A stretch of DNA of 64,000 bases from Prevotella sp. (GTDB taxonomy: Bacteria; Bacillota; Clostridia; Oscillospirales; Ruminococcaceae). The number at the start of each line of letters is the position of its first letter. Position 1 is the first letter of the stretch. The stretch is taken from assembly GCA_023663025.1 (NCBI GenBank), contig JAMPIC010000005.1, positions 13,735 to 77,734 on the forward strand, read 5' to 3'. Positions 25,792-52,438 of the stretch are shown here, piece after piece. A model generated the notes under the pieces. It saw only the letters and a program-made list of their open reading frames with translations, was not told the origin of the DNA and searched no databases. Made by a program: the position numbers and the translations under genes.

Positions 25792-25925
25792 ATGCGTATC
25801 CTCCTTTCGTCAGATTATATCATATTTTCCGCATATAATCAATAAAACCGTGAAAACAAAAAAATCCCCCGACAAAAGGCTGAACACGGTAAAGAAGTAT
25901 TTTAAAATTTTGAGAAAGGCTGCAA

Positions 25926-27605
<1,680 letters not shown>

Positions 27606-27701
27606 TTATACCACATCTTATTTTAAAATTCAATATGGTAAATTGCTAAATTTTATCTGACTTTTTTGACATAATCCGCTAATTTGCCGATTATATCAAA
27701 T

Positions 27702-27866
27702 TTATGCTGACCTTTGAATTTCCTTTCTTATTAACCTTGCGAGAATGTCTTTCAGGCTTTCGCCGTTTAAATTGAATTTGGTAACTACTTCGTATGTAGT
27801 GTACCCTATTTTGTATTTTGTAACTTCCTTTGGTGTATAGGTATTTATATATCCATTTCTAATCAT
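27702..27866 (-). CDS. TnpW-like small transposon protein (54 aa)
   Basis: MIRNGYINTYTPKEVTKYKIGYTTYEVVTKFNLNGESLKDILARLIRKEI matches the 'IG.T.Y.V...F......l.d.l.RLi..E' pattern of small proteins found beside TnpX-type recombinases. RBS GAAAGGAG. Confidence 0.5.
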   Translation of the reverse strand: MIRNGYINTYTPKEVTKYKIGYTTYEVVTKFNLNGESLKDILARLIRKEIQRSA

Positions 27867-27966
27867 TGAACTCCTTTCTGTCAAAGCGGGGTGTGTTCCA
27901 GCGTTTTATCGAACCTCCTTACATTTAAAAATTCACTACAAGGCATAAATATACTTTGTAAAGAAT

Positions 27967-27995
27967 ATTATATTCATTATGCTGAATTTTGTCAA
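27967..27995 (-). promoter_or_regulatory. Consensus sigma-70 promoter driving tnpW and the recombinase
   Basis: The minus strand reads TTGACA (complement of 27990-27995), a 17-nt spacer, then TATAAT (complement of 27967-27972). Confidence 0.55.
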
Positions 27996-28115
27996 GCTTT
28001 TAGAAACAAGTTTACAGAATGTTAATATTTGCCGTTTGTGAGAATTTTCCCGAACGGCGGATACTATGAAATAGTCCTAACCCACTATGACTATTTCCTC
28101 CGTAAATAGTCCTGT

Positions 28116-28200
28116 GGGAAAAACCGTCCTGCGGACGGTTTGGCTGTTCCTCTTGACCCCTATTGCAAAAAATCCTACCGCGTATCGCGATAGGATTTTG
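28116..28200 (-). terminator. Two tandem rho-independent terminators (minus strand)
   Basis: Hairpin 1 is AAACCGTCC-tgc-GGACGGTTT (28121-28141). Hairpin 2 is AAAATCCTAcCGCG-tat-CGCGaTAGGATTTT (28169-28199). Read on the minus strand, each is followed by a run of 5-6 T. Confidence 0.55.
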
Positions 28201-28540
28201 CATTGAATAAGAGCGGTTTTAGGTGAAACCTAAAATTTGGTAAAGGCATATGCACTTTACTGGGTGAAAGTATATGTATACTTTCTATGGCTTGCGAGCC
28301 TATGAAAAAACATTTTAACGGCGAAACCGCACTGCTTACTTAGGCTTTGCCCTAAGTAACGCCATAGTACATATGACATTGCCCTTTAAGGCAATATCAT
28401 ATGTACTGGCGCTCTCCGAGGGCAATATTTGCGGCGGTCTTAGGTGCAGCCGTACCTGCTTAGGTTTTGTCTCAAGTAATTTCATATGTGCAGGTGCTCT
28501 CATAGCGAAAACAGGAAATCAAGTAATGATTTCCTGTAAT
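28201..28540. ncRNA. Candidate structured RNA or long structured 3' UTR (hairpin-dense, ORF-free)
   Basis: No ORF here has an RBS. Perfect or near-perfect hairpins lie at 28217-28235, 28336-28359, 28366-28407 (11+6 bp) and 28511-28537 (11 bp). The region is bounded by minus-strand terminators. Class unknown. Confidence 0.25.
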
Positions 28541-28609
28541 TGCTTCAATATTATTTTTGCCCCATACATTAATTTTTATATTTTTTCGTTGATTAAGATA
28601 TAACTGTAC

Positions 28610-30031
28610 TTAATATGTAACTGAAATAGTAGGTGTGTCAATTCCATTGTAATTATCGTCCTTAATTTTTAAAGTAATTTCAAAATTTTCTATGTCTTCC
28701 GCACAGGAAACATTCGAATCATCAAGATACATATCCCATAATTTGATTTCTAAAATTACTGATTTACCAGCAGAAATAGTTTGACCATAAAAGCTATAAT
28801 CCATCATAAATCCGTTTACAGAAAATGAATCGTATTCATCAGTAATATAAATATCTTTTGTACTGCTGTTTTCGGCTAAAAGCATTATATGTATATCATT
28901 GCTATAAGCGCTGCTGTCGTCAATAGCTTTCTTTGAAACAATCCGTATGCCATTATTGTTATATATTTCCTCACCGGAATTGTCAAAGGACGATTTTACT
29001 TTTGGAATAGTAATTTTAATATCTGAGGAATCAATTATTTTGTCATAACTGTCACCCCGAACTACTAAATTAAATTCTATTTCTCCAATTTTATCTATGC
29101 CATACAAATCCCAAATGTTTTTTTCAATCATATTTGAAAACGCCATATCAACAACACAGCGTTTTCCCATATTAACGGTTTTGCTTGTCCAATTTCCGCT
29201 TTCAATAGTCAAACCATTCAAAGCAATATCACTTATACCAATATTAACAATTTCATCTGAATTGTTTTCAATTTCTAACAGTATAATATCATCACCGTCC
29301 TTATTTTTAAACAACATTTCAGAAATTAGGCGTATTCCATTGACATCATATAGTATATCTTCCGAAGAATAATTCAATGAATAGTCATATTTACTTTGGA
29401 GGGTATTACTTGATATTGCGTCTTTATAAGAATCAATAGTATAATCATAGGAATCATAGGCAGTAGTTTTTATTTGCAACGGACCGGTATAAATTTTATT
29501 GTAATCATCGTCCTCAATTTCAATATCTATTTCGATATCAGCAATTTCATTAATTCCATACAGACTTAATTCATTATAGCTGAATCCTATTGAGTCCATT
29601 GCCTTTTTCCCTGCTGAAACATCGCAATTCAAATAACCGCCATTGTACATATAGCCATTTACAGAATTACCGCTATGTCCCAAAGAGCCGGCAATAAACG
29701 ACAAGCTTTTGTTGCTGTTATTTTCAATCATAAGCTTAAGTTCCGCTTCATAATTATTGTAACTGAGTTCTGTTGCAGTAATTTTTACATCATTTTCGTC
29801 ATAGATAAGTATCTCTTCAATAGTCGCATTTTGTTTGAGTTCGGTTTTGTTCTCTGATTTAGTTTCGGTTTGAGCTGTGTAGGTTTCTTCATATTCTTCA
29901 TTACTTGTTGATACATCCTCATAGATTGCGTTTTCTAATGTTGTATTTTTTGTAGTGTCATTATCTTCATAGCAAGCAGTCATTGTCGCTGCAAGTAATA
30001 TTGTCATAAGTATTACTATTATTTTTTTCAT
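28610..30031 (-). CDS. Lipoprotein with three tandem ~130-aa beta-rich repeats
   Basis: Signal peptide and lipobox MKKIIVILMTILLAATMTAC (start 30031, RBS AAAGGAGG). Three repeats each contain a (L/I)xxENNS...NG(Y/L/F)... core and a Y/DxI.EIE..L.. tail. Confidence 0.75.
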   Translation of the reverse strand: MKKIIVILMTILLAATMTACYEDNDTTKNTTLENAIYEDVSTSNEEYEETYTAQTETKSENKTELKQNATIEEILIYDENDVKITATELSYNNYEAELKLMIENNSNKSLSFIAGSLGHSGNSVNGYMYNGGYLNCDVSAGKKAMDSIGFSYNELSLYGINEIADIEIDIEIEDDDYNKIYTGPLQIKTTAYDSYDYTIDSYKDAISSNTLQSKYDYSLNYSSEDILYDVNGIRLISEMLFKNKDGDDIILLEIENNSDEIVNIGISDIALNGLTIESGNWTSKTVNMGKRCVVDMAFSNMIEKNIWDLYGIDKIGEIEFNLVVRGDSYDKIIDSSDIKITIPKVKSSFDNSGEEIYNNNGIRIVSKKAIDDSSAYSNDIHIMLLAENSSTKDIYITDEYDSFSVNGFMMDYSFYGQTISAGKSVILEIKLWDMYLDDSNVSCAEDIENFEITLKIKDDNYNGIDTPTISVTY

Positions 30032-30144
30032 ACTGATACCTCCTTTCATAAAATTGTTTGAAATAATTAGGTTGCTTGCTAATTTTGCAAGTAAACTCTT
30101 TTCTTTTCCACTTCTGTTCATTATAAAGCTCCTTTTTTCAATAT

Positions 30145-30561
30145 TTAGGCAACATTACATTCTCTAATGTGAGATTTTACCAATGTTTGATTGGGTTTAA
30201 GAGTAATATCTCGTTCAATGGCTTCAGCTATTTTTGCGGGAGATGGATGATAGCCATTTGGTAAATTTCTAATATGTTCACACACATTAACGGGTATTTT
30301 TGTTGTTTCTAAATGGATTTTTGGAATTGAAACCGTTGGGGCAATCGGTAAAACTGTAATTTTCTCCATGTCAGCATAAGAATTAGGTGGTATTTTAGTT
30401 TGTGGTTTTTCAATGCTCCTTTTTAAATACTCCCATAACATAGTAATTGAGTCTCTATTTCTAATTGCTAAGATTATTGCAGTAAGACTCACTCCAACAA
30501 GAATCAATTCGTTCTTATGCTCTTTAACCCACTTGATAAATTTACTCTTTTGTTCTCTCAT
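30145..30561 (-). CDS. Membrane-anchored hypothetical protein (138 aa)
   Basis: One N-terminal TM helix (LILVGVSLTAIILAI). The C-terminal segment CEHIRNLPNGYHPSPAKIAEAIERDITLKPNQTLVKSHIRE belongs to no family I recognise. Confidence 0.6.
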   Translation of the reverse strand: MREQKSKFIKWVKEHKNELILVGVSLTAIILAIRNRDSITMLWEYLKRSIEKPQTKIPPNSYADMEKITVLPIAPTVSIPKIHLETTKIPVNVCEHIRNLPNGYHPSPAKIAEAIERDITLKPNQTLVKSHIRECNVA

Positions 30562-30643
30562 AATAAACCTCCGTAATAAATTATTAATTTTTGATACATT
30601 GTTTTTATTATTGTCATAATCTTATTTTTAAAACTATATGATA

Positions 30644-31717
30644 TCAATCCTCCCTTTTGTAGTTTTCGCAATAAATTTGGAATGAATTTGCGATATATCG
30701 GAATATGTATACTTTTACATTTTTCTTCTTGCATAAAATATATTCATCACTACGCAATAAAAAATAATCCTTAATGTTATCCAATAAAATTATGTTGTAG
30801 TCTTTTGAAACAATTTCAATTTTGGTCAAAATGCCGCATATTTGCTCAATTTCCCATTGTACCTCAGCAGAGAATGGACTTTTTTTATTCACACAAAATT
30901 TATAAAGGTTTTCAAAACTTTCTGTAAGAACCTTATCTATTTCATTATCCGAATTTTTCACAGTTGTGCAATAATATTTCACGGCATTAATGAAGAATAA
31001 TGTCTCATCGCAAGTTACTGTTGGTTCATCACCTGTCATAAGCCACACAGCAACACCTTCAAAAAATATTACAGATTCCGAAATAACCTTCGAAATAATT
31101 TTATGTATTTCTGTAATTTTAAGCTGTACCTCTTCTGAATAATAGGAATATTTTTCAGCATAAAGTTTTTTGGTATTTTCAAGAGCTTCAATCAAAATAT
31201 CCACTTCTTCGTCTGTAAAAGCTTTACTGATAAGGTCGTCATATTCATCACTAAGGCTTTTTCCAAAGCGAAAATTTTTACCAATTAATGAGAGGTATTT
31301 TATAGTTTTATCATAGTTCCATTTACTGTTTAAGTTAAGAATAATCTCAGGTGTGATACCCGTTTCCAATATAGCTTCTTGGGCATCAATATCCCTGTCG
31401 TACTCTTCTCTGCGCTTTTTTAACTTATTAAGATATTTTTCATGAAATGTTTTATAATTAAAATCAGTAGATTTTCCATAAATAATTTTTTTAATCTCTG
31501 AATTAGTGTACCAATCTTTTTTATTTTTGCAAAGCCCATTATAATCTTTTATCTCTTTTATCATACGGATTTTTTTAATTTCCATTTCATCAAAATGTTG
31601 TGCAATTCCTTGCCCTGTTTTATGAGTATCAAGTATTGCATCTATCCATCCTTGAAGTGTTTGTTTCGGTACATCAAGTTCTTTACTCAATTGAGAAACG
31701 GTTTTGATTTTTTTCAT
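30644..31717 (-). CDS. HTH (MerR/excisionase-like) domain protein with a ~300-aa helical C-terminal region
   Basis: N-terminus MKKIKTVSQLSKELDVPKQTLQGWI (HTH). The remainder is helical with an internal duplication (SEEVQLKITEIHKIISK / SAEVQWEIEQICGILTK). RBS AAAGGAGG. Confidence 0.6.
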   Translation of the reverse strand: MKKIKTVSQLSKELDVPKQTLQGWIDAILDTHKTGQGIAQHFDEMEIKKIRMIKEIKDYNGLCKNKKDWYTNSEIKKIIYGKSTDFNYKTFHEKYLNKLKKRREEYDRDIDAQEAILETGITPEIILNLNSKWNYDKTIKYLSLIGKNFRFGKSLSDEYDDLISKAFTDEEVDILIEALENTKKLYAEKYSYYSEEVQLKITEIHKIISKVISESVIFFEGVAVWLMTGDEPTVTCDETLFFINAVKYYCTTVKNSDNEIDKVLTESFENLYKFCVNKKSPFSAEVQWEIEQICGILTKIEIVSKDYNIILLDNIKDYFLLRSDEYILCKKKNVKVYIFRYIANSFQIYCENYKRED

Positions 31718-31930
31718 ACAGATACCTCCTTTATTTAAGTATAAAACTTACTGAGATCAGAAAGCAATACTATATTTTCAACAAATTTTTACAATGCTTT
31801 TTGTTAAGTATGACAGAAATAAATTGCATATACAAAAGCTGCCGATACATTAGTATAAGTATCGACAGCCATATAATCCGCTGTATTTGTCTTTTAATAA
31901 TATTTTTGAAAAACTTCTACATCGCTGTCA

Positions 31931-32040
31931 GCCTAAAGGCTGAGCCTTTGCCCTTATGGGCGTATATTGCCTGTAAGGGTAAATTGCTCCCACGGGCAAC
32001 AATACTTCCGTACCGTTACCTGCCTAAAGCCGAGGGACTT
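31931..32040 (-). repeat. Structured intergenic repeat, copy A (functional strand inferred as minus)
   Basis: The plus strand reads gcctAAAGGCtgaGCCTTTgCCCTTAtgggcgtatattgcctgTAAGGGtaaattgctcccacgggcaacaatacttccgtaccgtt... It starts 35 nt after the stop of the minus-strand gene 32075-32971. Confidence 0.6.
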
Positions 32041-32074
32041 TATTCCGCTAAAAATTATTCAACGCCTTGTGGTA

Positions 32075-32971
32075 TCATTCGCTGTCGTCATCATCATCTT
32101 CGCCGCCGAGTACAGCGCCGCTTAAATTCACATAATTGCCTTTTGCCGCCAAATCCATAATCTTTTTGAGCACCTCGCCGTCCTTAATAACCGCGCCGCT
32201 TAAGTTAAGGAATGAGCCGTTGCCGTTGCCGCAGAAATAATTTTCGTTTTCCTGCCGCTCTTGTATCTCCCGCCAAACGTCCGCATATGTCCAATCCTCC
32301 AGCTCGGCGTAGGCGTCAAGCTCCTTTGCGGACATAACGGTTTCCGCAAAATGGAGGGCGTTCAGCAGGAACGTCACCAGCCCGCTTTCGCCGCTGTTGA
32401 ACGGTATTTCGTAGACCCTCAGCAGACCGTCCTGCGTTTTCTTGCTTAACGTTGGCTTGAAACGGCTTCTTTCAAGCGGGTACTGCAAACTGTTCTCCCA
32501 ATCCTTGCCGCGCTCGATAATAAAGCGGGACTGCCCGTCTCCCGTGTCGTTCACGCCGCCCTGCACCGCAAAGCGGAACACATAGTCGGTGTTGGGTTCA
32601 AGCTGTTTCTCGCACTTGATCTGCGACCATGTCCAGTGCCAGTCGCCTATCTCGAAAACCTGCACGTTCTCACCGTCAAAATCGGAAACGAACAGCCTGC
32701 CGCCCGCGTTTACGGGGTTACCGTCCGATGACTGACAATTTTCGTCGAATTTAAACTCCCCGGCGTTGAAATTTATAACTTTACTCATTTTAAAATCCTC
32801 CGTATCCTTTACGGGCGGAGTTTTCGCGCCTTCGAGCAGTCTTATCCGCAGTTCGGAGACGCGCTCCGCCCTGCCGCTTTTTACCAGTCCCCGCGCCCTT
32901 TTCGGGTACGTCCGACCGATTTCGTTATCGAATTTGTCCGTAACAATAACGTTTTTTTCTATGGGTGTCAC
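32075..32971 (-). CDS. Hypothetical protein with an RRXRR/PLMP-like N-terminal motif and an acidic tail
   Basis: N-terminus VIVTDKFDNEIGRTYPKRARGLVKSGRAERVSELRIRLL, a beta-rich middle, then two NLSGAV repeats and a C-terminal GGEDDDDDSE. GTG start with poor SD spacing. Confidence 0.55.
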   Translation of the reverse strand: MTPIEKNVIVTDKFDNEIGRTYPKRARGLVKSGRAERVSELRIRLLEGAKTPPVKDTEDFKMSKVINFNAGEFKFDENCQSSDGNPVNAGGRLFVSDFDGENVQVFEIGDWHWTWSQIKCEKQLEPNTDYVFRFAVQGGVNDTGDGQSRFIIERGKDWENSLQYPLERSRFKPTLSKKTQDGLLRVYEIPFNSGESGLVTFLLNALHFAETVMSAKELDAYAELEDWTYADVWREIQERQENENYFCGNGNGSFLNLSGAVIKDGEVLKKIMDLAAKGNYVNLSGAVLGGEDDDDDSE

Positions 32972-39161: not shown

Positions 39162-40949
39162 TCAATAAAGCAGCTTGAACAGCTTTTTCTTTTCGACAGC
39201 AAATTCACTTTCGGATATAATGCCGTTGTCAAGCATGGATTTAAGTTTTTTGACAGCGGTCTCAAAGTCCTCAAGGGACATATTTTCGACATTCTTACCT
39301 ACGACTTCCGCAGCGGGCTTTGAAGGCTCGGCGGGTACGGCGGCAGCGGGGACGGGTTTTTCCGCAGCATTGGTTTCCTCACTGCGTTCCGGAGCGGGAG
39401 CGGAAACGGGTTTCGGTTCTGCCGCAGGCGCGGAAACCGGTCTCGGTTCGGTTCTGACCTCGGGAGCAGGGGACGGCTTGGGAGTGAGACGTTTCGCGAT
39501 TTCCTTTGTGGGATCAAGCTCTTCGATCTCGGCGGGGATATATTTTTCCTCGCGCACTTCCTCAAGCTCGTATTCCCGCGTGTCAACAGGAATTGTCAGT
39601 TCCTCGATCTTATCGGGATTTTTCTGTATTGTCTCCACAGGCATGGAGTTGATCTCTTCCTCGTCGGGTCCTTCGGATATCTCGTCCATGAACGATGTAA
39701 CCGACGGCATATCGTCCGCTCTTATTCCCAGGATATCGTCAAGACCCAGTATATCCTCAACCGTGACGGATTCGTTTTTATGAACCGGAGCGGGAGCGGG
39801 TGCGGGTTTAGGCGCGGGAGCAGGTGCAGGTGCGGGTTTAGGTGCGGGAGCGGGCGCAGGTGCGGGAGCGGGCGCAGGTGCGGGTTTAGGTGCGGGAGCA
39901 GGTGCAGGTGCGGGTTTAGGCGCGGGAGCAGGAGCGGGTGCGGGTTTAGGCGCGGGAGCGGGCGCAGGTGCAGGTTTAGGTGCGGGCGCGGGTGCGGGTG
40001 CGGATACAGGTTTAGGCGCGGGAACGGGCGCAGACTCGGTCTTTGGCTTCGGTTCAGACTTGATCATGTCCCTATAGCCGCTCGTCATGCTTTCAAATTC
40101 ATCGTCCTGCGCTCTGCGGCGAGCCTCCGGATTGAGCTTGCGACCGTTTTCAAGCTCTTGTTTCCGGGCGAGCTTGGCGTCGTATTCCGCCTTTGCGCTG
40201 CTGACCGCCTGTACTATCTTTTCCTTGTCGTTTTCCTCGAATTTTGGGAGGATTATCCTGCGGCTTGTTTTTCCATTGGTATTGTCGTCTCCGCACTGAA
40301 TATAGATAGGAGCTATCTTGTTGCTGTTATTAATGTATATCTTCGTGATCTCGTCGAAGCTGCAGGTAAATCCCTTATAGACGGGGTCTTCCTCGTTTAT
40401 TCCTGTGCGGACGCATATAAAGCCCTTGCCGTACACATGCTGGGGCGTAACGGTAATACAGATATCCTGCGGTTTTGAGAGAACGTTTTCCCTGTAGACG
40501 GTCTCAAAGTAAGCAAGCTTTTTTTCGCTGTAAACGGCGGCTTGGTTATCGGCGGAGGCGGGCTGCTTTTCGGGACGGCTGTCAAACTTTTCCTTTCCGT
40601 CCTCGATAGTCTTGATGATCTCATCCTTATTGCCGAAGCCGGGCAGAATTATCCTGCGCTGGTTCATAACGCCCGTGGAATTGTCGGCGCACTGCACATA
40701 TACAGGCTGAAGCTTGTTGTTAAAATTTATGTATACCTTTGTTATAATATCAAAGCCGCATTCAAAATTGGAGTAAAACATATCATCTTCTTTAGTGCCT
40801 ATCTGGTCGCAGATAAAGGCAGTGCCGAATATTCCGTCCTCGGTGACGGTAACCTTGATATTCTGCGGTTTTGAGATTACGCTTTCCTTGTAGACCGTTT
40901 CAAAAGAAGCAAGCTTTTTTGCGGATGAAATGCTTACTTGATTATCCAT
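39162..40949 (-). CDS. SHOCT-domain protein with two ~125-aa N-terminal repeats and a long (PAPAPAPKPA)n linker
   Basis: The C-terminus SLEDFETAVKKLKSMLDNGIISESEFAVEKKKLFKLLY is a SHOCT motif. The N-terminal duplication reads KKLA(S/Y)FETVY(K/R)E(S/N)V(I/L)SKPQ...RRIILP. Start at MDNQVSI (40949). Confidence 0.7.
   Translation of the reverse strand: MDNQVSISSAKKLASFETVYKESVISKPQNIKVTVTEDGIFGTAFICDQIGTKEDDMFYSNFECGFDIITKVYINFNNKLQPVYVQCADNSTGVMNQRRIILPGFGNKDEIIKTIEDGKEKFDSRPEKQPASADNQAAVYSEKKLAYFETVYRENVLSKPQDICITVTPQHVYGKGFICVRTGINEEDPVYKGFTCSFDEITKIYINNSNKIAPIYIQCGDDNTNGKTSRRIILPKFEENDKEKIVQAVSSAKAEYDAKLARKQELENGRKLNPEARRRAQDDEFESMTSGYRDMIKSEPKPKTESAPVPAPKPVSAPAPAPAPKPAPAPAPAPKPAPAPAPAPKPAPAPAPAPKPAPAPAPAPAPAPAPKPAPAPAPAPKPAPAPAPVHKNESVTVEDILGLDDILGIRADDMPSVTSFMDEISEGPDEEEINSMPVETIQKNPDKIEELTIPVDTREYELEEVREEKYIPAEIEELDPTKEIAKRLTPKPSPAPEVRTEPRPVSAPAAEPKPVSAPAPERSEETNAAEKPVPAAAVPAEPSKPAAEVVGKNVENMSLEDFETAVKKLKSMLDNGIISESEFAVEKKKLFKLLY
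39787..40030. repeat. In-frame tandem repeat, ~30-bp unit, about 7-8 copies
   Basis: The unit GGTGCGGGTTTAGGYGCGGGAGCRGGYGCA repeats head-to-tail. On the coding (minus) strand it encodes APAPAPKPAP units inside the SHOCT protein. Confidence 0.8.
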
Positions 40950-41178
40950 TGACAAACACCACTTTCGTATAATATTGCAGTACAAATCCTGCGGACTGAT
41001 TTATTGACAGCACTTTGGCATTACAGTAATATTATAACATATATTCTTAAAATAGTCAAACATTATTAATAGAGGAACACATAAAATTTCGGCGTGTTTT
41101 TTTTAACGATATGCACAATGGAATTATTTCTGTGAAATTACAGATAATACTGCTGAAATTGGTTCCGGAGGCTTTGCT

Positions 41179-41979
41179 GTGAAAAATTGGATATTTCTTG
41201 CTCTTGCGTTTTACGGACTTGCCGCCGCCTATATATCGTCGCTTTTCTATGCTGAAGCTCTGGCTTACGTCCCGCCCGCCGCGGCAATGACGGATATGGA
41301 CTTCCTTGCGGCTAAGCCGGTTTCCGCCTATACCGAAAGCGACTTTGAGCTGATACGGGAGCAGACGGGTCTGGGACGTTCCGCCGTGGTTTCCCTCGGA
41401 AGTTATGAACAGCTTTCGGAGTATCGGGACAGATACTTCGGCGGCGCGGATTTTTCCTGCACCATGAACTCCCCCGTTTCCTTTGAGGAGCGTATCTGCG
41501 GCGCTCCCGCCCTGCTTGCCCCTCTGGAGGACGGAGACATACTCGTTACCAATTGCTCCCACGTTTTAAGCTGGAGGAACGGTCACGCCGCCATAGTCGT
41601 GGACGCGGAGAACGGCGTTACTCTCGAAGCCGTCGTCATTGGCTCAAACTCCCGTACTCAGGACATAAGCAAGTGGACGCGCTACCCGAATTTCGCGGTG
41701 CTCCGCCTCAAAAACGCGGACAAAAAAGAACGCGCCGAAATAGCGCGTTCCGCATTGGAAAATCTTAACAACATTCCCTACAAGGTCACAATAGGACTTT
41801 TTCCAGCCAAATATTCGGAGCTTAGCCTTGCCGCGGGTACGCAGTGCGCACATCTGGTGTGGCTTGCCTACGCGGCTCACGGGTACGACATAGACTCCGA
41901 TCACGGACTGATAGTCACCCCCGAGGATATTCTCGGCAGCGACCTTTTCGAGCGGGTGCAGGTGTTCGGTATGGGCTAA
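41179..41979 (+). CDS. Permuted papain-like amidase, YaeF/YiiX (C92) family, with an N-terminal membrane anchor
   Basis: GDILVTNCSHVLSWRNGHAAIVVDAENGVTLEA...IPYKV...GTQCAHLVWLAY shows the His-before-Cys permuted NlpC/P60-like arrangement. The N-terminal hydrophobic helix is WIFLALAFYGLAAAYI. Confidence 0.7.
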   Translation: MKNWIFLALAFYGLAAAYISSLFYAEALAYVPPAAAMTDMDFLAAKPVSAYTESDFELIREQTGLGRSAVVSLGSYEQLSEYRDRYFGGADFSCTMNSPVSFEERICGAPALLAPLEDGDILVTNCSHVLSWRNGHAAIVVDAENGVTLEAVVIGSNSRTQDISKWTRYPNFAVLRLKNADKKERAEIARSALENLNNIPYKVTIGLFPAKYSELSLAAGTQCAHLVWLAYAAHGYDIDSDHGLIVTPEDILGSDLFERVQVFGMG

Positions 41980-42050
41980 AGGCTGAGCCTTTACCCTTGC
42001 CGCCATTTACAGCACGCAAGAGAAATTTTGCTTCCGAGACGAAGGAGCGT
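41976..42050 (-). repeat. Structured intergenic repeat, diverged copy D
   Basis: The plus strand reads ctAAAGGCtgaGCCTTTaCCCTTGccgccatttacagcacgCAAGAGaaattttgcttccgagacgaagg. It lies between convergent genes, beginning about 23 nt after the stop of the minus-strand HD gene. Confidence 0.5.
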
Positions 42051-42072
42051 TTATCGCCCGCCGGACGGTGCG

Positions 42073-42741
42073 CTAAATTATTTCCCCGCCGTTGATCCGC
42101 AGGCGGAACTTCACTCCGAGGAACTCCGCCGAGCGTTTGCACAGCATCATTCTCTGGAGGAAAATCTCAAAATATTCCATAACCGAGGCTATGCCTGTGT
42201 CTATTTCCAGCTCCAGGATAAGAGCGGTCTTATCCGCGCCGAAAAACAGGTCGGACTTTTCAACGGCGTAGTTCACGCGGTCGTGAATGTCGAAGCTTTT
42301 CATATCGGCGTTGCGGACGCGGCTTCGGCGCACGTCGGTCTTGTCGGCGATTATAAGCGCTGCGGAGACCGCGTTCAGCGGCTGGGCGGTGGACTCGTCA
42401 TGGTTGCCGATCGCCGAGATTATCGCGCAGATCTCCTCGGCGGGCATATTGAGATTGTCCAGCAGACGGAAAGCCATTACCGCGCCGCTCTGAGCGTGGT
42501 CGATACGGTTTATCACGTTGCCGATATCGTGAAGATAGGCGGCGATTTTTCCCAGCTCGACTGTGCGGGAGGGGTAATTCAGTGTGGACAGTATCATCTC
42601 CACCGTCGCCGCGGCTTTCTCCACATGGGCAAAGGAATGCTCCGTGTAGCCCTGAGCCTCCACTGCGGCGTCGGCGTTCTTTATATATGTGCGTATGTCG
42701 GGATTCCGGCAGATATATTCATAGGTCACAATGCTGCTCAT
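42073..42741 (-). CDS. HD-domain phosphohydrolase
   Basis: HSFAHVEKAA...AAYLHDIGNVINRIDHAQSG...AIGNHDE contains the H...HD...H...D metal ligands. Confidence 0.8.
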   Translation of the reverse strand: MSSIVTYEYICRNPDIRTYIKNADAAVEAQGYTEHSFAHVEKAAATVEMILSTLNYPSRTVELGKIAAYLHDIGNVINRIDHAQSGAVMAFRLLDNLNMPAEEICAIISAIGNHDESTAQPLNAVSAALIIADKTDVRRSRVRNADMKSFDIHDRVNYAVEKSDLFFGADKTALILELEIDTGIASVMEYFEIFLQRMMLCKRSAEFLGVKFRLRINGGEII

Positions 42742-47369: not shown

Positions 47370-49844
47370 ATGAAATTCGGTTTCTATGACGACGCTAACA
47401 AGGAGTATGTTATCACTTCCCCGCAAACCCCTTATCCGTGGATAAACTACCTCGGCACGCAGGACTTTTTCGGACTTATCTCAAACACCGCAGGCGGCTA
47501 TAACTTCTACAAGGACGCACGTCTCGCACGTATCACGCGCTACCGCTACAACAACGTTCCCGCCGACGCGGGGGGACGGTATTTCTACATAAACGACAAC
47601 GGCACTGTGTGGAACCCCGGCTGGTCTCCCGTTAAGACCGACCTTGACGAGTACAAGTGCCGCCACGGTATGGGCTACACTATTATAAAAGGCAAAAAGA
47701 ACGACCTTTCCGCAGAGGTGACTTTCTTTGTACCAAACAATTTCAAGGGCGAGGTGCAGAAAGTCGTGCTCAAAAACGAGGGCGGCGCGGCTAAGACTTT
47801 CAAGCTGTTCTCCTTTATCGAGTGGTGTCTTTGGGACGCGCAGGACGACTCCACAAACTTCCAAAGAAATTTTAATACCGGCGAGGTTGAGCTGGAGAAA
47901 AACGGCGCGGTCATCTACCACAAAACCGAATACAAGGAAAGGCGCAACCATTTTGCGTTCTACGCGGTAAACGACGCGGTGGACGGCTACGACACCGACC
48001 GTGAGACGTTTATGGGCGATATTTACCACGATTTCCACAACCCGAAAACCGTTATGGAGGGAAAGCCTGCCAATTCCGTTGCGGACGGTTGGTCGCCCGT
48101 GGCTTCCCACTACAAGGAAATTACCCTTGCGGCGGGCGAGGAGAAAACTCTTGTTTTCATTCTCGGCTACGTTGAGAACCCCTACCCCGAAAAATTCAAC
48201 GCCGACGGAACAATGAACAAGTCCCAAGCGTATGAGATGATGAAGAAGTTCGATACCGCCGAAAAAGCGGACGCGGCTCTCGCGGAGCTTCGGAAGGACT
48301 GGGACGAGCTTCTTGCAAAATACACACTTACGTCCCCCGACGAAAAGCTCAACAGGCAGGTCAACATCTGGAACCAGTATCAGTGTATGGTTACGTTCAA
48401 TATGTCCCGCTCCGCTTCGTATTTTGAAAGCGGCATAGGCAGGGGTATGGGCTTCCGTGACTCCAATCAGGACTTGCTGGGCTTTGTACACCAAATCCCC
48501 GAACGCGCGAGGGAGAGAATACTCGACATTGCCGCCACACAGCTTGAGGACGGCGGCAACTACCACCAGTACCAGCCCCTTACCAAAAAGGGCAACGACG
48601 CTGCGGGAACGAATTTCAACGACGACCCGCTGTGGATGATTTTGTCCACCGCCGCCTATATCAAGGAAACGGGCGATTACGACATTCTCAAAGAGCAGGT
48701 GGACTACAAAAACGACCCCGCTTTGGCGCAGCCCCTGCTCGACCACCTGAAGAGAAGCTTCTACCATGTTGTGAACAATAAAGGACCTCACGGCTTGCCC
48801 CTTATCGGACGTGCCGACTGGAACGACTGCCTTAACCTGAACTGCTTCTCCCGCGTACCGGGCGAGAGTTTCCAGAATACGGCAAGCAACATTGCCAAAG
48901 AGGTAAACCCCGAAACGGGTGCGCCCCTGAACGAGGAGACTGCCGAGTCCGTGATGATCGCGGGTATGTTCACCTATATCGGACCGGAGTATGTGGAGCT
49001 TTGCCGCAGAATGGGCGACAACGCCGAAGCCGACAAGGCGCAGGCTGAAATCGACAAGATGAAAGAGGCTATCGTCAAGTACGGCTGGGACGGCGAGTGG
49101 TTCTTGCGCGCGTATGACGCTTACGGCAAGAAAGTCGGCTCCAACGAAAACAAAGAGGGCAAGATTTTCATTGAGCCTCAAGGTTTCTGCGTTATGTCCG
49201 ACGTGGGCGGAAAAGAGTTCACCGAAAAGACCATGGCAAGCATCGACAAGTATCTGGGCACGAAGCATGGTCTGGTGTTAAACAACCCCGCCTTTACAAG
49301 CTATATCGTTGAGTACGGCGAGATTTCCACCTACCCCGGCGGATATAAGGAAAACGCGGGAATTTTCTGCCACAACAACGCTTGGATTATGTGCGCCGCC
49401 GCACACGCGGGTATGGGCGACACGGCGTTCGACTACTACACAAGGATCGCCCCCGCTTATCAGGAGGACGAGAAACTCCACCGCACCGAGCCCTACGTTT
49501 ACGCACAGATGATTGCGGGCAAGGACGCAAAGCGTTTCGGCGAGGCGAAAAACAGCTGGCTGACGGGTACTGCCGCTTGGAATTTTGTGGCAATTTCCCA
49601 GTACATTCTGGGTATCATTCCCGACTACAGCGGACTGAAAATCGACCCGTCCATACCTAAGGCTTGGGACGGCTACACGGTTTCCCGTTTCTACCGCGGC
49701 GCGACCTACAACATCAAAATCGAGAACCCGAACCACGTTTCCAAGGGTATCAAGTCCGTTACCGTTGACGGCAAGGAGATCGAGGGTAATGTTCTTCCCG
49801 TATTCGAGGGCGGCGTTCACGAAGTTGTGGCTGTTATGGGTTAA
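47370..49844 (+). CDS. Cellobiose phosphorylase (GH94)
   Basis: [29 protein letters not shown] is the characteristic cellobiose phosphorylase N-terminus. At 824 aa it matches the cellobiose rather than the cellodextrin enzyme. It also has the [10 protein letters not shown] and RADWND motifs. Confidence 0.9.
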
Positions 49845-49870
49845 TTTATTCAAAGTATAAATGCAATAAG

Positions 49871-49917
49871 GTATACACCGTCCGTCCTCTCAATAAACAG
49901 AGGGCGGACGGGTGTAC
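49871..49917 (+). terminator. GC-rich hairpin terminator after the GH94 gene
   Basis: ACACCGTCCGTCCTCT-caataaac-AGAGGGCGGACGGGTGT. The trailing T-tract is weak (tgtataatttt). Confidence 0.55.
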
Positions 49918-49948
49918 TGTATAATTTTGCAAAAAAGGAGAATTTTTT

Positions 49949-49987
49949 ATGAAAAATAATCATGTAAGCACGCCGATTGCAGACTGA
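49949..49987 (+). CDS. 12-codon upstream ORF (candidate leader peptide)
   Basis: ATG AAA AAT AAT CAT GTA AGC ACG CCG ATT GCA GAC TGA (MKNNHVSTPIAD). There is a strong AAAGGAG 8 nt upstream and a TATAAT at 49919-49924. Confidence 0.3.
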   Translation: MKNNHVSTPIAD

Positions 49988-50019
49988 CCGGGAGGTTAGT
50001 TTTGCAGCAGCCTCCCGAA

Positions 50020-50120
50020 AAGGTCTTTGGAAGAAACAGTACGAAAGTATTGTTACCCGTGGGAGCATTTTCCTCTTATTGGTAAAGTATGCCTATAAGG
50101 GTAAAGGCTCAGCCTTTTTT
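50020..50120 (+). repeat. Structured intergenic repeat, copy C (functional strand plus), ending in a terminator-like hairpin with a T7 tract
   Basis: ...aacagtacgaaagtattgttacccgtgggagcattttCCtCTTAttggtaaagtatgcctaTAAGGGtAAAGGCtcaGCCTTTTTTTgg. This is the reverse complement of copies A, B and D and lies 14 nt upstream of the RNHCP gene start. Confidence 0.6.
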
Positions 50121-50133
50121 TGGAGGAATTTCA

Positions 50134-50568
50134 GTGAACAGAGAAAACAAAAGAAAAGCATACGAAAAGGGTTACTATAAAAGCCACCCCTGCAAGGACG
50201 TTTTTACCTGCAAAGTCTGCGGACGACAGGTCGTCTCCGAGGGGGCGGGAAGCGAACACAGAAACCATTGCCCAAACTGCCTGTCAAGTCTGCACGTTGA
50301 CAACGAGCCGGGGGACAGGTCGTCCGACTGCGGCGGAATAATGGAGCCTGTGGCGGTGTGGATTAAAAAGGGCGGCGAGTGGTCGGTGGTACACCGCTGC
50401 AAACGCTGCGGGAAGTTCACCGCAAACCGCACAGCCGCCGACGATAACCCCGTGAAACTAATGTCAATCGCAATGAAGCCGCTGGCGAACCCGCCGTTCC
50501 CCATAGAGTTCCTGGAGGAGCTTACGGAGCAGATGGGCGGCGGTTCGATACCGAACGTCGGGGAGTAG
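50134..50568 (+). CDS. RNHCP-domain zinc-ribbon protein
   Basis: FTCKVCGRQV...EHRNHCPNCLSSLHVD...CGG...HRCKRCG contains the RNHCP motif and paired CxxC motifs. GTG start at 50134 with GGAGG 7 nt upstream. Confidence 0.75.
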   Translation: MNRENKRKAYEKGYYKSHPCKDVFTCKVCGRQVVSEGAGSEHRNHCPNCLSSLHVDNEPGDRSSDCGGIMEPVAVWIKKGGEWSVVHRCKRCGKFTANRTAADDNPVKLMSIAMKPLANPPFPIEFLEELTEQMGGGSIPNVGE

Positions 50569-50701
50569 GCTTACCTATATGCAATAAAAAACCGGAGCAA
50601 AGCCGTTAAAAAGTTGTGGCTTTTGCGCCGGTTTTTTGCGTTTTCAATCGCATATCTGTCTATGTCAATTCCGCAAAAAACAAATTTCAACAGGCGGGAA
50701 C

Positions 50702-50795
50702 AAAGACTGAGCCTTTACCCTTTTAGACGCAATATGTTAAAAAGGGTAAATTGTTCCCATGTGTAACAATACTTCCGTAACACTGCCTATCTAAG
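50702..50795 (-). repeat. Structured intergenic repeat, copy B
   Basis: The plus strand reads AAAGACtgaGCCTTTaCCCTTTTagacgcaatatgttaAAAAGGGtaaattgttcccatgtgtaacaatacttccgtaacactgcc. It begins about 9 nt after the stop of the minus-strand histidine kinase gene. Confidence 0.6.
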
Positions 50796-50803
50796 TCCCC
50801 GCC

Positions 50804-52438
50804 CTATGCTTTTACGGGTATCTTTATCACCGCGCTGAACCCTATCCCCTCCCCCGACCTGAACACTGCCGTTCCGCCGAGAGCTTCCGTCCTTTCGGTT
50901 ATGCCTTTCAGACCGTCGTGAGCGGTTATTTCCGCGCAGCCCCTGCCGTTGTCGAACACATACAGCTCCATAGACGTTCCGAGAAATTTTATGATAACGT
51001 CTATCCTGTCCGCACCCGAATACCTTACCGCATTGGTGATAAGCTCCCGAAAGCTGCTGTACACGCTCTGCACGCAGAACGCGTAGCTGCTGTCCTCCGC
51101 GCCCTGCGCGCACACTTTGACGCTTATGTCCCTCACCGCGTTCGCAACCGTCCTTACGGCGGCGGTGACGGTAGTCATAAAGCTGTCCTCCCGCAGGTCG
51201 TTTATTGAGCACCTCAGCTGGGTAAGTCCCCCTCTTGCCAGCGATTCCGTCTGCTCGGCGAAATCAAGCAGCTCCTCCGCTTCGGGCACAGCCCGTATAT
51301 TGGCGATACGCGACTTTGACAGCTTTGCGAGGGAGCTTATCATCGTAAAGGTATGCCCCGCAGTGTCGTGTACCTCTTGGGCTATCCTGTTCCGCTCCTG
51401 CTCCAGAGCCAGCTTCTGCCGCGCGAGAGCAAGCTCGTCGTTTTTTTCGATAAGCTGATAGTAACGGGATATATCTGAAATGATTATCAGCCGCGCTATC
51501 GGTATGCCGTTTCCGTTGCGGCAGAAATAGTGCTTTATGCCGTACACAATCCCGTCTTTTTCGATTTCCGCGCGGTCGAAGCTTTCGCTTATCCTTTTGC
51601 CGTTGAGTTCGGAAATATACTCCATAAAAGAAGCAAGGTCGGTTTTTGCGGTAATGCCCAGCTGCTTTTTCGCCATACCGTTGATGTAGGAAATACGCCC
51701 GCGCCTGTTGAAAACCGCCACGCCCTCCTCAATGGAGTTGAACGCGTCCTCAAAGGCGATCTCGTTCACGTTCAGAAAACCGTAACGGTATGTCGCGAGA
51801 AGCACCAGTATACCCGACAAAACAAAGGATACGGGGGTCAGCGCAAAGTCAAGGGTTATCACGTCCGCAAGGGTGAGCAGGTTTATCGTCAGGGGTACGG
51901 CGGTACTTAACGTCAGCAGCACTGCCTGTCCCCGCGAACGTTCTTTTATCTCAAAGCATTTTTTGCAGATAAGGACAATGCCCGCAAGCATAACCGTATA
52001 TGTATACACCTGTAAAACGTAGAAAAGCGGACCGTGTACGATCCTATCCGCCGAAAATTCGGAGTAGTAAAGCCGGTGCAGCGGATTTGCCGCCGCGCAT
52101 ACAAACATAACGGCGGAAAAGGTCAGAGTTTCGATAACAAGGGGTTTTGAAAGCTCCCTGTCCATATAGCTCACAGCGAACAGCAGCCAGCAGCTCCCAA
52201 GAAAGCTGATACCGAGGTTGCCCACGGCGTAGCTTACGGCAAGCTGACGTTCGCTTTCCGAAAAGATTATCATAAGCTGGGAGACTATCCAAAGGAGCTG
52301 CGAAAGCAGGCAGCAGACGAAAAGGAACGTCACCCTGCTGCGGCTGCCCCCGAAAGCGAGCCACAGTATCAGCCCGCACACCGTAAAAAGAGCCGCCAGC
52401 AGCATTCCCGTTATTACGGGCAGCAATTCTGTATTCAT
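50804..52438 (-). CDS. Sensor histidine kinase (N-terminal 7TM domain, PAS-like, HisKA_3, HATPase_c); no cognate response regulator adjacent
   Basis: Seven N-terminal TM helices, the H-box QERNRIAQEVHDTAGHTFTMI (HisKA_3, the NarL/LuxR-partner type), and N and G boxes (ELITNAVRYSGA, DNGRG, GLKGITER). Confidence 0.85.
   Translation of the reverse strand: MNTELLPVITGMLLAALFTVCGLILWLAFGGSRSRVTFLFVCCLLSQLLWIVSQLMIIFSESERQLAVSYAVGNLGISFLGSCWLLFAVSYMDRELSKPLVIETLTFSAVMFVCAAANPLHRLYYSEFSADRIVHGPLFYVLQVYTYTVMLAGIVLICKKCFEIKERSRGQAVLLTLSTAVPLTINLLTLADVITLDFALTPVSFVLSGILVLLATYRYGFLNVNEIAFEDAFNSIEEGVAVFNRRGRISYINGMAKKQLGITAKTDLASFMEYISELNGKRISESFDRAEIEKDGIVYGIKHYFCRNGNGIPIARLIIISDISRYYQLIEKNDELALARQKLALEQERNRIAQEVHDTAGHTFTMISSLAKLSKSRIANIRAVPEAEELLDFAEQTESLARGGLTQLRCSINDLREDSFMTTVTAAVRTVANAVRDISVKVCAQGAEDSSYAFCVQSVYSSFRELITNAVRYSGADRIDVIIKFLGTSMELYVFDNGRGCAEITAHDGLKGITERTEALGGTAVFRSGEGIGFSAVIKIPVKA

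Follow-up and report, generated by a model that had tools for sequence, protein, structure and literature searches.

Large serine recombinases (LSRs) of the DUF4368 type make up a multi-targeting clade to which the TndX-like transposases belong, and for one multi-targeting LSR 21 targets have been described, with a common TT core and A/T-rich flanks (bioRxiv 10.1101/2021.11.05.467528). Recombination of Tn4451 takes place at 2-bp identical sequences and with low target specificity (PMC5704250), and the core used by TndX of Tn5397 is GA (PMC4430133). In the 2024 review of prokaryotic MITEs the word 'serine' is absent (PMC10969869). The window analysed here (the whole stretch of DNA, 64 kb in length) holds members of a high-copy miniature family that resides in terminator loops and, probably, a serine-recombinase partner for it. 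The repeated units of this family are very probably inserted mobile DNA and not a gene-linked RNA module.

The first-pass annotation of the window described a collinear intergenic repeat in four copies. An nhmmer profile built from them found exactly these four (E = 3e-30 to 4e-20), and a covariance model from 41 family members, run over the window with filters off, returned the same four at 101, 93, 90 and 26 bits, both searches agreeing with the annotation on their places (Table 1). No fifth copy was found in the nhmmer scan of the 64-kb window, where the remaining matches are antisense echoes of palindromic parts. The refined limits of the copies count the flanking T's; the core of copy A, AGGCAGG...GCTCAGCC, spans 31938-32025 with TTT on either side. 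Copy A had been thought to end at 31931, but the unit-like 'cap' of a 6-kb island directly adjoins it, and the repeat at 41976-42050, taken for a short copy, proved to be full length and a member of a divergent subfamily once it was clustered with more members. This copy B takes up all the space that separates two convergent genes and runs into the stop codon of each: the TAG at 42073-42075 takes the first AG of the unit, the TAA at 41977-41979 takes its terminal TT, and the insertion seems to have re-defined the C-termini of both genes. The terminator arms around copy D are GGGCGGGGAC (50795-50804) and GTTCCCGCC (50693-50701), followed by a T-rich tail. A comparison with Rfam had also been suggested, and no Rfam 15 family matches the copies: at the gathering threshold the sole match in the whole window is a tRNA, and for copies A, C and D scans at E <= 10 returned nothing but weak, unrelated matches. 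A terminator scan over copies C and D (49840-50860) flagged nothing at the 3' hairpin of the unit, and exact-protein look-ups with two proteins of the window returned no match. At 50576-50648, a bidirectional terminator after the RNHCP gene attracts spurious matches to mir-30 (E = 0.001) and mir-2813 (E = 0.38), which are hairpin-driven false matches. The window also contains, at 39162-40985 on the minus strand, a 607-aa ORF with a long PAPAPK-type proline/alanine repeat and duplicated N-terminal domains, unrelated to the repeat family.

Table 1. Repeat copies, island features and split terminator in the window (positions are those of the window).
Feature	Position	Strand	Remarks
Copy A, subfamily 1 unit	31935..32028	(-)	nhmmer E = 3e-30; covariance model 100.9 bits
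Copy B, divergent subfamily with 'CGTCTCGGAAGCAAAA' motif	41978..42077	(-)	nhmmer E = 4e-20; covariance model 25.7 bits
Copy C, in T-run between leader hairpin and RBS of the RNHCP gene (50134-50568)	50026..50117	(+)	93.2 bits
Copy D, terminator loop of histidine-kinase gene 50804-52438	50702..50794	(-)	flank duplex dG -23.0
Low-GC 6057-bp island joined head-to-tail to copy A	25878..31934	(-)	GC 0.26-0.34 vs ~0.5 outside
Large serine recombinase gene (545 aa), island 3' end	25929..27563	(-)	Pfam domains (see text)
Cap, island 5' terminal module	31873..31934	(-)	unit-like start, 19-mer GACAAATACAGCGGATTAT at its end (31873-31891); recurs in relatives
Intrinsic-terminator-like hairpin GCTGTCGATAC...GTATCGGCAGC, then TTTTG	31833..31870	(-)	directly after cap
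Inverted cap 19-mer in recombinase 5' leader	27580..27598	(+)	between promoter-like TTGAAT-N17-TGGTATAAT and RBS
5' arm (AAAGTCCCTCGGC) of split terminator, gene 32075-32971	32029..32041	(-)	pairs with 25858-25874, duplex dG -22.4
3' arm and T-run (TGTCGGGGGATTTTTTT), same terminator of gene 32075-32971	25858..25874	(-)	now 6.15 kb from partner

The family was searched for with a 21-nt pattern from the 3' end of the unit, AAGGGYAAAGGCTCAGYCTTT, against a collection of species-representative genomes. Further copies in relatives, proposed in the annotation as a check, are present: among the matches listed, the pattern occurs in more than 111 stretches from about 12 MAGs, named as Ruminococcus sp., Oscillospiraceae and uncultured Clostridia, at least 3 to 15 loci per MAG, and the sole match outside these MAGs, again among those listed, is a chance match within a gene of a Geopsychrobacteraceae MAG. 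Profile searches of the matched loci and the window yielded at least 159 units in at least 126 arrays (101 single, 20 double, 2 triple and 3 quadruple). Each unit measures 91-95 bp, all multi-unit arrays are head-to-tail with a period of 91-94, and the consensus reads TT(T)-AGGCAGGTAACGATACAGAAGT ... AAGGGTAAAGGCTCAGCC-TTT, where the hyphens mark the unit limits. Clustering separates several subfamilies, which have the 3' block and a 5' block, AGGC..GTAACGATACAGAAG, in common and differ in their internal parts; arrays often combine subfamilies, the recurring order being subfamily 2 and then subfamily 3. Units at unrelated loci are 80-90% identical across the internal sequence. Judged by sequence, the units are probably a mobile non-coding 91-95-bp DNA family that extends across a clade of gut Ruminococcus/Oscillospiraceae. 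A literature search for a described equivalent, that is, ~92-bp units with matching ends or a terminator-loop preference, found none.

Two pairs of filled and empty sites, at copies A and C, demonstrate insertion. The site of copy A is represented by three states of one locus. In a 76% ortholog of gene 32075-32971 (L211) the terminator is intact, AAAGTCCCTCGGC-TGC-TGTCGTGGGACTTTTTT, and has no insert; in the window the site reads AAAGTCCCTCGGC-TTT-(copy A + 6057 bp)-TTT-TGTCGGGGGATTTTTTT; and in an 89% ortholog (L210, 1882-1937) a different terminator (AAAATGTTCCCC/GGGGAACATTTT) has a loop occupied by just the H1 hairpin, which is the first 34 nt of a unit. At copy C, loci L192 and L197/L198 are without the unit and the RNHCP leader is otherwise conserved: the RNHCP orthologs at 90% and 87% identity (P0003, P0004) retain the GH94...RNHCP neighbourhood, and their leaders keep the small ORF and the hairpin CCGGGAGG...CCTCCCG, with the unit absent. 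Where L192 has CCTCCCGAAAGGTATTTAC directly followed by TTTTTAGGAGG, the window has CCTCCCGAAAAGGTC-(TTT-unit)-TTTTTTTGGAGG. The small ORF, of 12 codons (MKNNHVSTPIAD and a stop), overlaps the hairpin 5' of the RNHCP gene at 49930-50015 and is conserved in the 87-90% relatives L192 and L198; the two may form a leader-peptide attenuator, with copy C sitting between it and the RBS. A riboswitch or 5'-leader role, an idea that arose from the place of copy C 5' of the RNHCP gene, was dropped, since convergent genes flank copies B and D and copy C is missing from relatives. The pairs L052/L074 and L070/L077 were rejected as clean empty sites, their intergenic regions having diverged, and a metagenome scan with the RNHCP protein returned only 74-78% relatives, without synteny and without units.

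The surroundings of the units point to a preferred kind of target. In an alignment of 71 full copies with their flanks, many flank pairs are mutual inverted repeats followed by a T-run, for example in L028 (GGCTGCGC...GCGCAGCCTTTTGTTTTTTT), L106, L008 and copy D of the window. Over 80 arrays the energy of the 5'/3' flank duplex has a mean of -13.0 kcal/mol, compared with -8.3 kcal/mol for shuffled partners (Mann-Whitney p = 2e-7), and 37.5% of these arrays lie below the 5th percentile of the shuffled-partner control; T-runs stand 3' of the array in 37/80 and A-runs 5' of it in 34/80. Because the flanks pair and a T-run follows, many units are located in the loop of an intrinsic, often bidirectional, terminator, each of these arrays being surrounded by a copy-specific inverted repeat with the T-run after it. 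About half of the arrays have no obvious enclosing hairpin, and among the other sites are positions after a complete terminator hairpin (L009, L052, L087) or beside the RBS of a divergent gene (L042, L043, L026). Of 79 arrays, 71 have a T at position -2 relative to the unit and 64 have one at position -1. With a greedy ORF model, the gene context is convergent in 31 cases, tandem co-oriented in 35, tandem anti-oriented in 28 and divergent in 11, and tandem units of either orientation are some 30-40 nt away from a gene 3' end. The copies had been described as always placed 3' of a gene on the strand of that gene; the nearness to 3' ends is general, but the co-orientation is not, and copy C lies in the RNHCP 5' leader, 182 nt past the previous stop, and not just 3' of a gene. 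That the copies look as if placed just 3' of genes is explained by their usual target, the loop of an intrinsic terminator.

The island that adjoins copy A, a candidate for the autonomous partner of the units, starts with AGGCTGACAGCGATGTAGAAGT... and ends with ...CTTCTTTACCGTGTTCAGCC, followed by TTT at 25875-25877 and then by the missing terminator arm. It encodes a 545-aa LSR, a MerR-like protein and proteins without a Pfam match. The recombinase has the Resolvase (E = 6e-19), Recombinase (2e-19), Zn_ribbon_recom (9e-14) and DUF4368 (1e-24) domains, i.e., the domain set of TnpX/TndX-like LSRs, and on these domains it is classed as a DUF4368-type LSR of the TnpX/TndX 'multi-targeting' clade; homologs with 76-90% identity occupy different insertion sites. 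The cap sequence, AGGCTGAYAGCGATATAGAAGTTTTTCAAAATATCGTTATAAAGACAAATACAGCGGATTAT, is found at the end of several arrays, and the cap module follows units in L032, L040, L054, L056, L079, L094, L108, L201 and L207. A terminator hairpin stands after every cap, with a sequence that varies among most islands and is common to L054, L079, L108, L201 and L209. The 19-mer of the recombinase leader is conserved in L201 and L206-L209. Together with the cap end it makes a 19-nt inverted repeat (27580-27598 + / 31873-31891 -) that is perfect in the window, and the differences across islands are a compensated double change in L209, a G.U in L201 and a mismatch in L207; a transcript running through the cap would be antisense to the leader of the recombinase gene. 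The idea of an invertible segment between the 19-mers at 27580 and 31891 was set aside because the true island ends are 25878 and 31934 and the internal copy lies in the recombinase leader in every island. The island also includes a non-coding stretch of about 244 nt (28168-28411), with GC above its surroundings, which has no family match in Rfam and is 79% identical to L032 18-269, inside a related island with different cargo.

Most cases of a cap next to a unit come from loci chosen for containing units. Islands were also collected independently of units, from the surroundings of recombinase homologs, and of the four complete islands found via the recombinase alone, two abut a unit. One of these, L201 (recombinase 89%), is laid out as ThiF gene, AAATCCCCGCTG arm, unit, cap, cargo, recombinase, ...TATCAGCC-TTT and CAGCGGGGATTTTTT arm, with a duplex of -29.2; the other, L207 (recombinase 86%), has the same layout, an insert of 9.9 kb and a duplex of -18.5. 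The islands without a unit are L208 (recombinase 81%), which lies alone in a terminator loop, and L209 (recombinase 76%), which is nested in another recombinase gene and has a Mob_Pre relaxase. L206 (recombinase 87%) has the same 3' end, and its 5' end is beyond the contig edge. The flanks differ among the window, L201, L206, L207 and L209, with TT(T) at the junctions in each; the flank of L208 is also different, with the 5' junction ATT and a divergent 3' terminus (CCCCCTACATTT). The islands are thus found at many insertion sites with a short identical core, as is typical of TnpX/TndX-like elements. Locus L108 can be compared with its orthologs L042 and L043, which have a unit in a terminator loop: the synteny breaks exactly at the 3' end of the unit, where the cap and foreign DNA begin. 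In L209 (211-11971) the N- and C-terminal parts of the other large serine recombinase gene flank the island, and with more recombinase and relaxase genes in the vicinity such elements seem to have piled up here. In L207 (870-10690) a complete pst phosphate-transport operon lies between cap and recombinase, together with PhoU and a two-component system, and this segment may be either an unusually large cargo or two ends from separate events.

The termini of the island in the window (AGGCTGAYAGCGATATAGAAGT...TCAGCCTTT) resemble those of the units, with matches at 16/22 nt at the 5' end and 10/12 nt at the 3' end; in the other islands the matches to the unit consensus are 15-18/22 nt and 9-10/12 nt (6/12 at the 3' end of L208). 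The internal ~45 nt of the unit and most of its 3' arm past TCAGCCTTT have no counterpart in the islands. The island ends are imperfect inverted repeats of each other, and the joint between unit and island, TCAGCC-TTTA-GGCTGA, is a dyad-symmetric core. Shared termini, junction, target and adjacency suggest, at the level of sequence, that the units are tied evolutionarily and mechanistically to the LSR islands, and we consider this rather likely. We favour, with moderate confidence, the reading that the units are non-autonomous relatives of serine-recombinase islands in miniature form, or else the landing pads that such islands prefer. That the island recombinase itself might move the units, in trans, is a narrower claim, on which we are somewhat more doubtful than convinced.

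According to the mechanism proposed here, the units would be miniature kin of 5-10-kb integrative islands with a DUF4368-type LSR of the TnpX/TndX kind, one of which adjoins copy A. Units and islands have in common the 5' terminus, the 3' terminus TCAGCCTTT, the TT(T) junction and the type of site that they enter, where inverted-repeat arms enclose a T-rich centre and which is most often the loop of an intrinsic terminator. The crossover would occur at TT; TT(T) at both junctions fits the crossover core of a serine recombinase and a target-site duplication equally well. The joint at the 3' end of the unit (TCAGCC-TTT-A) would mimic the end-to-end joint of the island (TCAGCC-TTTA-GGCTGA), which in the circular island would read ...ACCGTGTTCAGCCTTTAGGCTGACAGCG..., and because of this mimicry new units and islands would land head-to-tail behind existing units, building arrays. 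The hairpins would be either dyad-symmetric protein-binding ends or selected for compact folding, so that the split terminator still works and the folding of the insert preserves termination. The main obstacle to the recombinase moving the units is the stiffness of a 92-bp double-stranded circle, a poor serine-recombinase substrate; possible ways round it are multimer circles formed from arrays and unequal exchange between sister duplexes. Neither an excised form nor a polymorphism in unit presence within one species was observed, and this counts against the favoured reading, as do the parts of the unit without an island counterpart, the arrays outside an obvious hairpin and the choice of most cap-bearing loci by their units. 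In its most extended form, which we regard as possible though rather unlikely as a whole, the proposal states that the units are the first miniature elements of a multi-targeting LSR, that terminator hairpins serve the enzyme as pseudo-att sites by virtue of their dyad-symmetric arms and TT core, that units seed safe landing pads behind which islands integrate, and that the cap encodes a terminator-ended antisense RNA whose 19-nt seed pairs with the recombinase leader, coupling expression to the integrated state.

The hairpins of the units matter, and the counts given here do not tell apart a role in RNA, a role in single-stranded DNA and a role as protein sites with dyad symmetry. The structure was assessed on a gapless alignment of 41 units (A4) because a consensus fold computed over all subfamilies together recovered the 3' hairpin alone. 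The helices have 81-100% standard pairs vs 33-55% with partners slid by 1-3 columns, and both-side changes occur in 42-49 cells vs about 19 in shuffles, the counts being inflated by shared descent. In the 5' half two mutually exclusive helices, H1 (12-22/27-37) and H2 (29-37/42-49), both gain support, and H2, the middle helix of the first-pass annotation, is the one retained across subfamilies. The compensatory change reported for it is borne out among the 41 family members, with 5/12 pairs changed on both sides; the reported 3' hairpin AAAGGC-TCA-GCCTTT likewise has compensated variants elsewhere in the family (CAAGGC/GCCTTG, AATGGC/GCCATT, AAAGTC/GACTTT), and the G.U pair that had been described is present in copy D. 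The ratio of G.U to A.C is 72:18 in H1, 50:10 in H2 and 32:40 in H3, and the strand asymmetry that had been put forward as an RNA-level sign holds in the 5' half (H1, H2) but not in H3, which has no strand preference. The G.U excess in H1 and H2 hints at a constraint on single strands or at the level of RNA, for which a mechanism confined to double-stranded DNA has no need. A functional RNA element, i.e., a 3'-UTR stabiliser, terminator module or small RNA with dispersal as a secondary matter, would account for this excess and for helices that stay paired through both-side changes. It would also agree with the fold of each copy being better than its shuffles (z = -2.2 to -4.1), with a consensus fold score of -19 on the sense and -9 on the antisense strand, and with the transcription of the units that follows from their location inside terminators. 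However, the orientation to neighbouring genes is unbiased (35 vs 28), copies occur in 5' leaders and antisense beside RBSs of divergent genes, Rfam has no family for them at the gathering threshold or at E <= 10, and H3 is without a strand preference; common ancestry inflates the covariation counts, and the best-conserved block, AAGGGTAAAGGCTCAGCCTTT, is kept in sequence even without its pairing partner (e.g., in subfamily 3). We thus regard an RNA function as a quite improbable account of the units, and a 3'-UTR or small-RNA module as their primary nature, an option of the annotation, is unsupported.

The chief rival to mobile units is that they are immobile, being preferred attB sites for islands or remnants of imprecise excision that accumulate in arrays at repeatedly hit terminators. 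Islands do adjoin the 3' end of a unit in the window, L201 and L207, an island was gained or lost exactly at the unit junction in L108 compared with L042/L043, the first 22 nt of the unit are like the island 5' end, L210 holds just the first 34 nt of a unit, and arrays of mixed subfamilies have a recurring order, all of which would suit such sites or scars. However, units at unrelated loci are 80-90% identical over an internal sequence that is absent from islands, copy C lies in a T-run with no trace of an island, and independent excision scars are unlikely to give tight subfamilies of 91-95 bp; we find this explanation unlikely. Still less probable, in our opinion, and very much so, is a miniature element of another transposase, e.g., of the IS200/IS605 'peel and paste' type (PATE/REP-like), with the likeness to the island due to coincidence or target mimicry. 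Such an origin would be in line with the absence of long terminal inverted repeats, the subterminal hairpins and the strand-asymmetric wobble pairs, and with the fact that the short T-rich motif 5' of each insertion is the same as the 3' end of the element itself, which would explain tandem arrays. This single-strand model was demoted because an orientation bias is lacking and the termini match the LSR island at both ends: the strong replication-linked bias of PATEs is not seen, the ratio being 35 vs 28 with gene direction as a proxy for replication direction, and in 790 kb of loci no unit halves split by a coding insert were found, the orphan 5' halves being island caps only. Mobile units remain the preferred reading, and of the options in the annotation the MITE-like element is favoured by the many dispersed copies, the head-to-tail arrays and the two filled/empty pairs.

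If the link between units and islands holds, a serine-recombinase-driven class would join the miniature elements of bacteria, so far attributed to DDE or HUH enzymes. Targets would be chosen by a simple rule, inverted-repeat arms around TT, which in practice means a terminator loop, and terminators would offer a nearly harmless home to a mobile element. Multi-targeting LSRs are under development as integration tools, and natural target rules and 'landing pads' would be useful for genome engineering. For RNA-motif discovery the family is a caution: conserved covarying intergenic hairpins near stop codons may turn out to be mobile DNA lodged in terminators and not regulators in the 3'-UTR.

By its sequence features, the island itself falls in a known kind, that of Tn4451, Tn4453 and Tn5397 (TnpX/TndX), with which it has in common the LSR domains, many sites and a short identical T-rich core at both junctions; the relative L209 has a Mob_Pre relaxase, as does Tn4451. 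Its core is TT(T), unlike the GA of Tn5397/TndX, and in contrast to TnpX/TndX elements the islands favour terminator-hairpin loops and are accompanied by high-copy ~92-bp units with matching ends, of which no description was found for those elements. The units resemble prokaryotic MITEs, and classical ones in this respect, in being small, non-coding, multi-copy and intergenic, with stable hairpins and ends akin to those of a larger coding element. They differ in that the terminal inverted repeat has only 6-7 nt (AGGC.../...GCCT), that a clear target-site duplication is not seen, and that the candidate parent encodes a serine recombinase and not a DDE transposase; the inverted repeats of at least 10 nt and the DDE target-site duplication of classical MITEs are thus not a property of the units. 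With REP/BIME (REPIN) sequences they share an extragenic position, palindromes and a frequent location at gene 3' ends, and IS1397, which targets REP loops, is a precedent for insertion into a hairpin loop. However, REPs are single palindromes of 20-40 nt in clusters of alternating orientation, associated with RAYT transposases, and the units are 91-95 nt long (92 nt as a rule), with three hairpins, strictly head-to-tail in direct arrays and within host terminators, so that the REP/BIME-like option of the annotation fails on anatomy. No RAYT gene was noticed in the vicinity of the units. The BOX elements of Streptococcus pneumoniae (boxA-boxB(n)-boxC, with RUP and SPRITE) are likewise modular intergenic repeats with variable tandem internal modules, often clustered, often near gene 3' ends and with a stable predicted RNA structure (PMC10969869). 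They have no evident sequence relation to the units, which are repeated as a whole head-to-tail, often inside the stem of a host terminator, and for which, in contrast to BOX, a candidate mobilising enzyme can be identified.
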